Shown: piece after piece, positions 25,323 to 28,154 of the stretch
Numbering within the stretch: the stretch's first letter is position 1
Layout: each line of letters begins with the position of its first letter
Assembly (NCBI GenBank): GCA_037143335.1
Contig: JBAWZA010000010.1
Coordinates: 25,326 to 89,325, forward strand
Reading direction: 5' to 3'
DNA: 64,000 nucleotides
From: a bacterium
Lineage (GTDB): Bacteria; Bacteroidota; Ignavibacteria; Palsa-1295
The notes under the pieces: model-generated
Told to the model about the DNA's origin: nothing
What the model saw: the letters and a program-made list of their open reading frames with translations, nothing else
Databases searched by the model: none
Translations under genes and position numbers: made by a program

Positions 25323-25420
25323 TTTAGAACAATTTTCATACCCTTTTCTCCATTCTCAATTTTCTATTCTCACTTCCGCCACCAACGCGCGGCGCGGGCA
25401 TCGGCGGGCAAGGGAGCGGC

Positions 25421-25454
25421 AATTATCAAACCCGCCCACGGTTGAAACCGTGGG
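25421..25454. repeat. REP-like palindromic element, copy B (inverted orientation)
   Basis: ATTATCAAACCCGCCCACGG-ttgaaa-CCGTGGGC. Its reverse complement reads GCCCACGGTTTCAACCGTGGGCGGGTTTGATAAT, nearly identical to copy A. Confidence 0.55.
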
Positions 25455-25522
25455 CTAATATGTTTTCATCGGTTTCACCGATTCGGGGAATAAGAGTCGC
25501 CTTTGGCGACGGCAACAGATTA

Positions 25523-25552
25523 GCCCACCAATTCATTGGTGGGCGGGATTCG
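25523..25552. repeat. REP-like palindromic element, copy C
   Basis: GCCCACC-aattcatt-GGTGGGC-GGGATT. Shares the GTGGGCGGGATT 12-mer with copy A. Stem base pairs are compensatory (CACG/CGTG versus CACC/GGTG). Confidence 0.5.
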
Positions 25553-25609: not shown

Positions 25610-26428
25610 ATGGCAGAAACGACAGGAACAGAATATATTTTACGTATCAATCAAACAGAGCTTGAGCGACTCGGTTTTCAGCATGGAGTGTGGAAGGATG
25701 TGTCGGATGCATTTTTTGACAGACTCAAGATCGCTGAAGGCTGGGATTGCCTTGATGTCGGCGCAGGTCCAGGATTTGTGTCGATGGATTTACGAGATAG
25801 GGTCGGGGATTCAGGCTCCGTAACCGCTCTCGAACCAGCGCAAATGTATCTTGATTATCTGAGCAAACAAGCGGAAAGGCGTGGGTGGAAGAATATCACT
25901 TGCATTCAAGGTGATGCCGAAACAGCTCTACTTCCGAAGGAGAAATATGATATTATCTATGTTCGATGGGTTCTCTGCTTCGTGCCTGATCCCGAAAAAT
26001 TCATCGCGAATTTGCTTCCTGCACTCAAGGTCGGTGGAATTATTGCGATTCAAGATTATTTGTATTCAGGTTTAGGCCTATATCCGAAGGGCGGTGCATT
26101 CGATAATGCACTTGAGACCGTTATCAAGCATTGGAAAATAAATGGCGGCGATGCTTTTATCGCTGGGAGAATCCCAGGTATTTTTCGGAAACTTGGTGTT
26201 GAGCTTATTGATTACTCACCGCATGTGAAGACAAGCGGTCCAGATGGCGATGTAATCGAGTGGGCAGATAAATACTTTACAAAACATCTGCCAATCATGG
26301 CGGCTGACGGTGCGACCACAATCGAGATGGCAGATGCGATGGTTGCCGATTGGAATGCTCACCGCAAAAATCCAGATACAATATTTTGCTCGCCGATCTT
26401 GGTGGATGTTGCTGGAAGAAAGATTTAG
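25610..26428 (+). CDS. class I SAM-dependent methyltransferase
   Basis: LDVGAGPGFVSMDL glycine-rich SAM motif. 272 aa. Confidence 0.6.
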   Translation: MAETTGTEYILRINQTELERLGFQHGVWKDVSDAFFDRLKIAEGWDCLDVGAGPGFVSMDLRDRVGDSGSVTALEPAQMYLDYLSKQAERRGWKNITCIQGDAETALLPKEKYDIIYVRWVLCFVPDPEKFIANLLPALKVGGIIAIQDYLYSGLGLYPKGGAFDNALETVIKHWKINGGDAFIAGRIPGIFRKLGVELIDYSPHVKTSGPDGDVIEWADKYFTKHLPIMAADGATTIEMADAMVADWNAHRKNPDTIFCSPILVDVAGRKI

Positions 26429-26450
26429 TTATGAATTGGATATTGGTAAA

Positions 26451-26558
26451 TCTCCGTGCCACTCCGTGAGGTACTCCGTGTTCCTCCGTGGTTCATAATA
26501 AAGTATCGAGGAATTAACCACGGAGGGGCACGGAGTTCGTCACGGAGGAACGCGGAGT
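26451..26558. repeat. 108-bp inverted repeat carrying 4+4 helically phased CTCCGTG / CACGGAG heptamers
   Basis: Left arm tCTCCGTGccaCTCCGTGaggtaCTCCGTGttcCTCCGTGg. 26-bp AT-rich centre. Right arm cCACGGAGgggCACGGAGttcgtCACGGAGgaacgCGGAGt. Confidence 0.55.
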
Positions 26559-28015
26559 TAGAGTATTGGCAGCATCGCAGCAGGCTGCTCGACTCCTGCA
26601 TGTTCGTGTTCACTCACTGATGAGATGACGAGTGGTGTCAGGTCATAAATCACCTCGCCGCGATCTTGAGAAGTTTGCAGGGTAATTTTTGATTCTTTCA
26701 CATCAGTTAATTCTCCGAATAACGTTGAGGAAGTTGATCGCAGAATTTTTACCTTGCGATACTCGCCGACTTCTGCATCTATTCTTGGGAATACTACTTT
26801 CTTGTTTGAATCAGTTCTTCCGCGCCAATCATTTTCACTTCGCTTCGAACGGCCTTCAACAAGAACGGTATGCTCAGTTCCGATTTCAGTAAGATTTTTT
26901 TGTGCAGCGATTCTATATTGAATATCAATCATCTGAGTCAATCTCCTCGACTTCTCTACATCTGGTACATCGTCAGGGAGTGTGTCGAATGCTTTTGTAT
27001 TTGGTCTTGGCGAGTAGTTGTACATATAAGCACCTTCATACTCAACCTCTTTGATAACTTCGAGAGTCTGAAGGTGATCCTCGAGCGTTTCGGTGCAAAA
27101 ACCTACAATAAAATCTGTTGTTAGTGCGGCTTGTGGCATTGATTTCTTAATCATCTCGATGATACCCATATAATGTTTTCGGGTATAAGTGCGATTCATC
27201 AATTTCAGAATTCGATCTGAACCAGATTGCAACGGAAGATGAATAGATTTGCAGATGTTATCATGCGATGCCATCGTATCGGTCAACTTCTGATCGAAGT
27301 CCTGAGGATGGCTTGTCGTATATCTAATGCGAACACTCGGGACTGCTTTTGCGCATTCTCCTAGTAGATCAGAAAAATCTTTTCCTTCATCCGAAAACGA
27401 ATTTACGTTTTGACCGAGTAACGTAATTTCCTTGAATCCCTGTTGCTCAAGTTGTTTGCATTCATCTACGACGGAAAGCAATGTTCTTGATCGTTCTCTT
27501 CCGCGTGTGAATGGGACTACACAGAACGTACAAAATTTATCGCATCCGCGCATAACGGAAATATAAGCCGTGATTCCCTCGGCACGGAAGGGGAGTATGT
27601 CATCGTAAGTTTCGGTGCGCGAAAGTTTGATTGCAATGCCACTTGTACCTGTATGGAGCGTAGCATCAACGAGCGCAGGAAGCTTGCGATACTCATCGGG
27701 TCCCACAATGAGATCCATGACGTTGTCCTTCGTTTGTAAAAGGTCTTTCCGTAAATGCTCAGCCATGCAACCCAGCAACCCCATCACCATTTTTGGTTTA
27801 CGTCGTTTCTGCCCTTTCCAATGCTGAAGGCGCTTGCGTACTTTGTCCTCCGCATTTTCGCGGATGGCACATGTATTCATAAATGCAAGGTCTGCCTCCT
27901 CAAAATTCATGGTCGGTGTGTAGCCAGACTTTCCCATTACGGCGAGTACAACCTCGGTATCTGCCACATTCATCTGGCAGCCATACGTCTCAATGTAGAT
28001 TTTTTTCGTTGTCAT
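26558..28015 (-). CDS. miaB: tRNA-i6A37 methylthiotransferase MiaB
   Basis: MTTKKIYIETYGCQMNVADTE... Radical-SAM and TRAM regions. 485 aa. Confidence 0.85.
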   Translation of the reverse strand: MTTKKIYIETYGCQMNVADTEVVLAVMGKSGYTPTMNFEEADLAFMNTCAIRENAEDKVRKRLQHWKGQKRRKPKMVMGLLGCMAEHLRKDLLQTKDNVMDLIVGPDEYRKLPALVDATLHTGTSGIAIKLSRTETYDDILPFRAEGITAYISVMRGCDKFCTFCVVPFTRGRERSRTLLSVVDECKQLEQQGFKEITLLGQNVNSFSDEGKDFSDLLGECAKAVPSVRIRYTTSHPQDFDQKLTDTMASHDNICKSIHLPLQSGSDRILKLMNRTYTRKHYMGIIEMIKKSMPQAALTTDFIVGFCTETLEDHLQTLEVIKEVEYEGAYMYNYSPRPNTKAFDTLPDDVPDVEKSRRLTQMIDIQYRIAAQKNLTEIGTEHTVLVEGRSKRSENDWRGRTDSNKKVVFPRIDAEVGEYRKVKILRSTSSTLFGELTDVKESKITLQTSQDRGEVIYDLTPLVISSVSEHEHAGVEQPAAMLPIL

Positions 28016-28114
28016 TTGCTAAATCCTATAACTTTGCAGGCTTGATTCGCGTTCAATATCATCAATAATACCTTATGGGTACTTTATACTCTGTCCCGTG
28101 GGTCGGGGATGTTT

Positions 28115-28154
28115 ACCACGGAGTAACACAGAGGTTTTCACGGAGGAACAGGAG
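28115..28154 (+). repeat. partial second copy of the CACGGAG element
   Basis: CCACGGAGtaacacagaggttTTCACGGAGGAACAGGAG. Near-identical to 26541-26558 (GTCACGGAGGAACGCGGAG). Confidence 0.45.

Follow-up and report, generated by a model that had tools for sequence, protein, structure and literature searches.

The parent insertion sequences of miniature inverted-repeat transposable elements (MITEs) carry multiple subterminal repeats that are bound by the transposase, comparable to the ends of Tn7 and Mu, and intervening sequences of the 23S rRNA that carry an open reading frame (ORF), of the Leptospira type, were reportedly described by Ralph and McClelland in 1993. REP, REPIN and BIME elements are repetitive extragenic palindromes associated with RAYT (PMC3116915, PMC3733652), and intergenic repeats of the heptamer TAACTGA are known from Beggiatoaceae, Cyanobacteria and Bacteroidetes (PMC4679880). 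Here we describe an inverted repeat of CACGGAG heptamers in a 64,000-nucleotide stretch of DNA (the window) from a bacterium of the Ignavibacteria (Palsa-1295), positions 25,326 to 89,325 of contig JBAWZA010000010.1 in assembly GCA_037143335.1. The 106-bp element fills the 129-bp gap between the convergent stop codons of a class-I methyltransferase gene and miaB, and a further arm of the same kind lies on the other side of miaB. With a probability of roughly 0.65, the element is a cargo-less, or orphan, REP/MITE-like copy of a widespread family of cassettes that end in CACGGAG arms.

The element (26452-26557) consists of two arms and an AT-rich linker. The left arm (26452-26490, minus strand) has four exact CTCCGTG heptamers at 26452, 26462, 26474 and 26484, which read CACGGAG on the minus strand, and the right arm (26519-26557, plus strand) has exact CACGGAG heptamers at 26519, 26529 and 26541 followed by a CGCGGAG at 26551; the four heptamers per arm of the original prediction, which was made from the sequence alone, are thus exact in the left arm, and in the right arm three are exact and the fourth is a variant. 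The start-to-start spacing is 10-12-10 in both arms, in agreement with the predicted 10-12 bp. The linker (26491-26518, no strand assigned), which had been put at 26 bp, is indeed AT-rich and spans 28 nt between the innermost heptamers; it holds the inward-facing 5′ leaders of both arms, ATTAAC of the right arm on the plus strand and TTATGAAC of the left arm on the minus strand, both of which match the family consensus TTTnAC, and its GGTT and AACC close the stem to leave a 22-nt loop. The methyltransferase gene (25610-26428, plus strand) stops 23 nt before the left arm begins, and miaB (26558-28015, minus strand), whose product has UPF0004, Radical_SAM and TRAM domains, has its stop codon (26558-26560) abutting the right arm, so that the predicted location at the convergent 3′ ends of the two genes is accurate. 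The repeat is real and beyond chance: the window contains 15 exact heptamers compared to 5.2 expected, a count reached in 0 of 100 shuffles, and 8 adjacent degenerate heptamer pairs compared to 0.32 in 200 shuffles (maximum 2), and all eight fall at 26452-26557 and 28112-28154. The window is a part of the 111.6-kb metagenome contig ERZ4222710 NODE_76, and a second assembly is identical across the element region. No further arm was found in the rest of the window or in about 18 kb more of the contig (82 kb in total); the refuting condition named in the original prediction, no second site beyond these two, holds within the contig and fails across genomes.

A scan of 185,579 species genomes (GTDB, one per species) for three CACGGAG heptamers spaced by 3-5 nt gave at least 120 matches, and once 12-nt coding repeats and pure tandem repeats had been removed, 122 arrays in 79 loci were left among the matches listed. 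The carriers belong to at least 10 phyla in all and include Planctomycetota, Bacteroidota, Chloroflexota, Alphaproteobacteria, Gemmatimonadota, Cyanobacteriota, Spirochaetota, Armatimonadota, Ignavibacteria, Lentisphaerota and others. The raw count of three-heptamer matches was rejected as proof of specificity, as two permuted control heptamers gave similarly saturated results in viral contigs, almost all of them 12-nt coding repeats, and by a rough background estimate imperfect tandem repeats are able to yield such matches. Since the raw counts are uninformative, the matches were judged by their architecture, namely heterogeneous spacers, inverted partners, a leader and an intergenic position.

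Judged in this way, the arm appears as a polar module, 5′-TTTnAC(CACGGAG-N2-5)x3-4, which occurs solo, in tandem or as inverted pairs. First, an inverted partner is found no more than 150 bp away for 64 of the 122 arrays (52%), compared to 0 of 18 and 1 of 18 arrays of the two permuted heptamers, although these controls come from viral contigs, in which most matches to any pattern are coding 12-nt repeats and CACGGAG arrays also have an inverted partner in 0 of 4 cases. Next, in 180 arms the heptamer positions are 98-100% conserved except position 4 (G 92%, A 7%) and the consensus has a TTTnAC leader before the first heptamer, as do the window arms, whereas the spacers and loops are not conserved; the heptamers also surpass the pairing in conservation, the spacers of partner arms being complementary at 58%, compared to 27% for shuffled partners. 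The arms have three or four units at 9-12 nt, and their spacing follows lineage: 10-11-10 is typical of Bacteroidota, Cyanobacteriota and Chloroflexota, and 9-10-10 of Planctomycetota and Acetobacteraceae. Three of the loci (numbered here with an L), L018, L417 and L434, share the 10-12-10 spacing of the window. Finally, 38 of 39 array clusters in low-GC loci are intergenic, with flanking genes in every orientation, and no recurrent protein family was found within 600 bp, where only translations of the arrays themselves and ABC ATPases were seen. With three or four units, a TTTnAC-type leader, an intergenic position and an inverted partner 28 nt away, the window arms share these features, and on sequence grounds we regard the membership of the element in the family as established.

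The window holds one back-to-back pair, in which a 3′-type arm, the AT-rich linker and a 5′-type arm follow one another, and one solo arm. The back-to-back arrangement occurs with four exact heptamers in 26 metagenome loci, and a near look-alike with the same spacing and a linker that ends in ...gaaattaac is located between an aminotransferase gene and a nadE-like gene (L434, 3793-3890). Arrays of a related heptamer, CGCAGAG, at 8-9-nt spacing adjoin CACGGAG arrays and a GxxExxY gene in two loci (L023, about 2250-2330; L463, 300-380 and 880-990), and the family probably takes in several heptamer variants of the form CRCRRAG. At gathering score, the Rfam matches of the window and of 18 array-bearing loci are tRNAs only, and below the threshold there are only chance matches to microRNA hairpins. 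The searched literature contains no description of spaced CACGGAG arrays and reports no link between GxxExxY genes and repeats; the words CACGGAG and CTCCGTG retrieved only primers and unrelated matches, and keywords gave analogies.

The evidence for a gene-carrying parent comes from the DNA enclosed by the arms. Between inverted arms 150-3000 bp apart, L085 and L417 carry small ORFs for GxxExxY proteins, L423 has a decayed copy, and the cargo of L057 is a GFA-family protein (PF04828); GxxExxY (TIGR04256/PF13366) belongs to the PD-(D/E)XK nuclease superfamily. Altogether, 11 loci have a small ORF that is bracketed or abutted by arms of CACGGAG or closely related heptamers, which is GxxExxY in 10 of the 11, and a profile search of all fetched array-locus DNA found four GxxExxY-like ORFs, every one of them arm-bracketed or arm-abutting. 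The polarity is nearly uniform, with the purine-rich CACGGAG arm on the 5′ side and the CTCCGTG arm on the 3′ side of 10 of the 11 ORFs, and the start codon follows the last heptamer by 2-4 nt in L057 and L100. The arms constitute the cassette ends in L085, L417, L423, L443, L453 and L464-L466.

An array-independent check was provided by the loci of two GxxExxY proteins, P0200 and P0225, which were picked by protein similarity alone and are found in two different gene neighbourhoods. On the 5′ side of both ORFs, TTTAC and four heptamers precede a conserved leader of about 95 nt, and on the 3′ side a trailer is followed by four CTCCGTG-type heptamers and then GTTTA or GTTAA. When these two loci are aligned with L417, the similarity starts at TTTAC-CACGG and stops at CTCnGTG-GTnTA. 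Such sharp borders indicate that a unit of about 640 bp, present in at least three genomic contexts, has the arms as its terminal inverted repeats, and we take these alignments as sufficient to establish that, in loci other than the window, the arms form the ends of cassettes and similarity breaks off sharply there. Near-identical back-to-back hairpins of the window kind stand on either side of the ORF in L417 and L423, and the pair in the window is the same unit that parts adjacent cassettes elsewhere.

In a sample of eight plasmid-borne GxxExxY genes that are 38-56% identical, four adjoin arrays of CACAGAG, CGCAGAG or CGCGAAG with TTCAC and GTGAA borders, one has a single inverted 13-mer and three lie among other repeats. 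In L464, L465 and L466 the GxxExxY gene is wedged, a few nucleotides from its neighbours, between housekeeping genes that run in one direction; L466, a Sphingomonas parapaucimobilis plasmid, has the order fabD-GxxExxY-fabG, with only a 5′ array of the CGCGAAG type and no 3′ arm. In L057 (7454-7918), a Chamaesiphon metagenome-assembled genome (MAG), the GFA-family gene is bracketed within 4 nt by perfectly mirrored four-heptamer arms, which shows that cargo other than GxxExxY exists. At about 1925-1995 of L453 a small palindromic insert with a cgtcccgagtactcgggac core interrupts the GxxExxY unit within the first heptamer of its 3′ arm, a case of one repeat family nested inside another.

The GxxExxY protein is 125 amino acids long and has at least 7,988 close relatives, and its function is listed as ‘unknown’ in the 2012 survey of the PD-(D/E)XK superfamily (PMC3424549). 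No sequence relative was found in the PDB, and the AlphaFold model (predicted local distance difference test score, pLDDT, 57) is too poor for a fold search. Thousands of GxxExxY proteins that are 82-90% identical to one another are found on contigs of about 1 kb, a pattern that multi-copy cassettes would produce by breaking short-read assemblies, and a single GxxExxY locus was found in viral contigs.

A second line of argument concerns the local history of the miaB region. The named relatives of the window MiaB are from Candidatus Kapaibacteria and Bacteroidota MAGs, and in five relatives with 81-83% identical MiaB (L123, L125, L413, L414, L415) no arm was found in 83 kb. Of the spacer upstream of miaB, these five conserve the miaB-proximal part, and the distal part is variable: in one the spacer is only 75 bp long and empty, and in at least three of the other four it contains unrelated palindromic inserts, two of which are headed by GTAG, as REP elements are. 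The inserts, each present with its mirror, are GTCATTGCGAGG...CGAAGCAATC, GGTAGCCGCAGGCTTTAGCCTGCG and GTAGCGCGGACATCTTGCCCGC, and are located at 9800-9990 of L123, about 5860-5950 of L414 and about 5905-5960 of L415. This variety suggests that the spacer is a landing place for several small palindromic repeats, of which the heptamer arm is the one that this lineage chanced to gain. The absence of the arms from the five relatives points to lineage-specific gains rather than to a conserved miaB operator, and judging from these sequence comparisons we count the acquisition of all three window arms in the Kapaibacteria-like lineage as shown.

The arms resemble REP and REPIN elements in being short, non-coding and intergenic, in forming inverted doublets that give hairpins, often just past stop codons, and in their lineage-specific copy number, and the GTAG-headed palindromes upstream of miaB in the relatives are of the REP type. 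In contrast to REP sequences, whose unit is an imperfect palindrome of 20-40 nt tagged with GTAG or CGTC, the arm is a direct heptamer array that has neither an internal palindrome nor such a tag, one heptamer is shared across at least 10 phyla whereas REP sequences are lineage-specific, and the associated gene codes for a PD-(D/E)XK protein rather than a Y1 (HUH) transposase. REP and REPIN copies number tens to hundreds per genome, which also has a RAYT gene; the 82 kb of the window contig have three arms. The likeness to MITEs lies in the inverted ends, each a short site in several phased copies, in the cargo-less short derivatives that far outnumber the gene-carrying units, in the sharp end boundaries and in the terminal inverted repeats shared with a gene-carrying parent, here the GxxExxY unit. 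The differences are the absent target-site duplication, a sole recurrent cargo that is a 125-residue nuclease-fold protein and not a DDE, HUH, serine or tyrosine enzyme, and the additional occurrence of the arms in solo, tandem and back-to-back form. Like the intervening sequences of the 23S rRNA, the cassettes have a small ORF within inverted repeats that pair in the transcript, from which RNase III would free an ORF-bearing RNA, and both are small, multi-copy families with ORFs of unknown function; the arm elements, however, lie between protein-coding genes, with no heptamer arms found in rRNA genes, and carry GxxExxY instead of a four-helix-bundle protein. The TAACTGA repeats similarly consist of a single heptamer, are intergenic, occur in distant phyla, often just 5′ of start codons, and work by a mechanism that is not known, but they are contiguous, without spacers, inverted arms or an associated ORF.

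Several observations weigh against an orphan cassette copy. No direct repeat that could be a target-site duplication flanks the window copy, and none is visible at L443, L453 or L057. A profile search found no GxxExxY gene in the 82 kb that include the window or in the loci of the relatives, which is why the window copy can only be an orphan member of the family. The three arms in 82 kb are a low copy number, and as they all lie within 1.7 kb around miaB, a locus-specific role may exist. A comparison of near-identical strains gave no insertion event, the two available assemblies being identical here. The back-to-back order of the window, in which the AT-rich linker follows a CTCCGTG arm and precedes a CACGGAG arm, is the less common form, with 8 compared to 56 among the classified pairs, and the control for specificity is indirect, as the control heptamers were run on viral contigs. 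The arms have no overall RNA strand asymmetry, counted as G-U versus A-C mismatches (12 vs 19), and no T-run follows the hairpin on either strand. Lastly, distant GxxExxY genes in Fusobacteria, Persicobacter and Prevotella (L468, L469 and L470) lie amid repeats that are not heptamers, so that the association of GxxExxY with the arms holds for a large subfamily and not for the whole family; in L468, a direct repeat of about 25 nt, CAGATTTAATCCGTGTACCTAT, is present on both sides of the GxxExxY gene.

Among the alternatives, an attC-like cassette boundary or recombination site survives best, even if we consider it unlikely. The element would then be a folded two-armed site at which ORFs are inserted or excised by a site-specific enzyme, and the window copy would be empty. 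The near-identical hairpins on either side of the ORF in L417 and L423, the ORF of L057 bracketed within 4 nt and the plasmid GxxExxY genes wedged between housekeeping genes such as fabD and fabG would all suit such a site, and integron attC sites are likewise imperfect inverted repeats with 7-bp boxes and a variable centre that part closely abutting, promoter-less ORFs. The arms, however, have four boxes where attC has two (R′′/L′′, L′/R′), their loop sequence varies between loci, and the cargo is nearly uniform, almost always GxxExxY, with no long arrays of diverse cargo seen; no integrase or recombinase recurs near the arms and no IntI turned up nearby, although no integrase-specific search was made.

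It is rather improbable that the element is home-grown, a product of slippage and inverted duplication at this site that serves the convergent genes as a terminator in both directions or as a 3′ stabiliser, with its likeness to the family being due to convergence. The position exactly between two stop codons and the very stable fold on both strands would suit such an origin, and slippage commonly makes tandem heptamer repeats (PMC4679880). Against this, unrelated genomes have the identical heptamer, the TTTnAC leader, arms of four units and the 10-12-10 spacing as well, the third arm lies in a 5′ region, the window spacers pair poorly, and the T-run is absent.

Slightly less probable still is an operator array, in which a multimeric regulator, either a tandem dimer of the OmpR/PhoB type or a ring like that of MraZ, binds the arms on the two sides of miaB and loops the DNA, by which miaB and its neighbours would be controlled. 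The geometry is suggestive, as the heptamers are spaced by 10-12 bp on one helical face with two 17-bp dyads per arm, are conserved far above the spacers and are confined to the surroundings of miaB within the 82 kb. Direct 7-mers with one-turn spacing in sets of three or four are also typical of Pho-box and OmpR operators, iterons and MraZ boxes; the 7-bp direct repeats and 10-11-bp phasing of OmpR/PhoB-type operators are found in the window arms, and MraZ boxes share the 7-mer with a 3-nt spacer (PMC8475190). Those sites, however, belong to particular genes, at whose promoters or origins they lie, and are kept across orthologous regions, whereas the arms are dispersed and variable in location, often lie past stop codons and are missing from the same spacers of the five relatives. 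The response-regulator operator for miaB that had been suggested originally is not borne out for these reasons, and also because the main site sits between two stop codons, the same module is found beside unrelated genes in many phyla with no recurrent neighbour family, and other genomes have dozens of tandem copies (as in L010). The element is not a dedicated miaB regulator. As for MraZ, the published box, AAAGTG(T/G), is unlike CACGGAG (PMC8475190), and no mraZ-like ORF is present in the window or in any fetched locus; MraZ boxes form an array, as a rule the only one in a genome, ahead of mraZ or the dcw cluster. Iterons, the other original suggestion, are not borne out either: the neighbouring genes are those for the methyltransferase, MiaB, a secreted protein, EPSP synthase and GroEL, no rep gene was found among them, and the element has no BLAST match in plasmid and phage collections. 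Chance clustering of a common word, which has only the short length of the motif to recommend it, is refuted by the shuffles.

Locally, the element likely gives each of the two convergent mRNAs an RNA hairpin at its 3′ end. The hairpin potential in the original prediction is confirmed, as the pair is predicted to fold with -72.2 kcal/mol on the plus strand (z = -9.0) and -61.2 kcal/mol on the minus strand (z = -7.9). In the window, the spacers between the heptamers allow Watson-Crick pairing at only 4 of 11 positions, which suggests that the stem is a string of 7-bp helices parted by internal loops. Transcripts from either gene would fold into a 3′-end hairpin of about 40 bp, which would act as a 3′-end barrier, a stabiliser or an RNase III substrate. 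An intrinsic terminator was rejected, the stem being GC-rich but lacking a U-run, and a terminator scan made no call at 26440-26570. The polarity of arms after stop codons (14 vs 7) is not significant and is biased by the choice of loci. In a Chitinophagaceae MAG (L010; 600-1000, 3780-4110 and 7500-7700), hairpins in tandem runs occupy the intervals between paralogous permease genes of the FtsX/MacB type, and one arm of these hairpins is uniformly of the CACGGAG type and its partner uniformly of the CACAGAG type, an asymmetry by which G-U-tolerant stems form only on the strand antisense to the genes; Bacteroidota copies also have one arm that is uniformly of the CACAGAG type.

The heptamers, which fall on one helical face, would bind a multimeric protein that moves or maintains the elements, for which the GxxExxY nuclease would be the obvious candidate reader. 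That a protein reads the heptamers is plausible, because their conservation far exceeds that of the spacers and they are phased by one helical turn.

The solo third arm (28112-28154, plus strand) lies in the divergent spacer between miaB and a 374-residue ORF and begins with a TTTAC leader (28112-28116), followed by the heptamers (28117-28154). Its units are CACGGAG, CACAGAG, CACGGAG and CA-GGAG, separated by taa, gtttt and gaa and spaced 10-12-10, and it has TCACGGAGGAAC in common with the right arm. The motif upstream of miaB had thus been correctly noticed, and it is a complete arm rather than the supposed half-copy. The gene caller starts the ORF at GTG 28098, by which the solo arm would be translated, and only with this start do the arm and the downstream gene overlap, as the original prediction had it in placing the start codon within the copy; with the likelier ATG 28161 they do not. 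This ATG, which follows the last GGAG of the arm by 6 nt, opens a signal peptide (MKRIFLVLVIAILSANTVHA), and since the peptide begins after the arm, the arm is more likely a 5′ untranslated region than coding. The GTG 28098 start is probably wrong and the real start is probably 28155 or 28161. The solo arm would then provide a GGAG just 5′ of the start codon of the neighbouring secreted-protein ORF; the RNA fold of this region is not significant (z = -1.2).

Apart from the arms, the 287-bp spacer upstream of the methyltransferase gene contains four short GC-rich hairpins (25370-25545), GCCCACGGTTGAAACCGTGGGC at 25434-25455, CATCGGTTTCACCGATTCG near 25468, GTCGCCTTTGGCGAC at 25496-25510 and GCCCACCAATTCATTGGTGGGC near 25524, which may represent another repeat cluster or a structured RNA.

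For annotation, the symmetry of the arms around miaB should not be read as a miaB operator or an origin, and the start of the 374-residue gene should probably be shifted to ATG 28161. The arm repeats are misread as ORFs in several loci, of which this gene call and spurious array-spanning ORFs are examples, and they probably break metagenome assemblies, as many carriers are on contigs of about 1 kb. The CACGGAG-arm family appears to be a new sort of small palindromic intergenic repeat with a gene-carrying parent, and that this parent is a new class of nuclease-driven cassette is a real possibility. More specifically, and rather more tentatively, at less than even odds, the arms could be the ends of an unrecognised selfish cassette with GxxExxY as its enzyme, a nuclease-driven mobile or intragenomic homing element spread over at least 10 phyla. 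If so, the cassette would have left thousands of cargo-less hairpins and solo arms, for example around miaB, and its 5′ arm with four GGAG and 3′ arm with four CUCC would pair in transcripts, a pairing that would gate translation or steer the RNase III release of the cassette mRNA out of read-through transcripts of the host. GxxExxY is a large family of unknown function, and its tie to phased heptamer ends makes binding or cleavage of arm DNA or RNA by the protein a hypothesis that can be tested directly.

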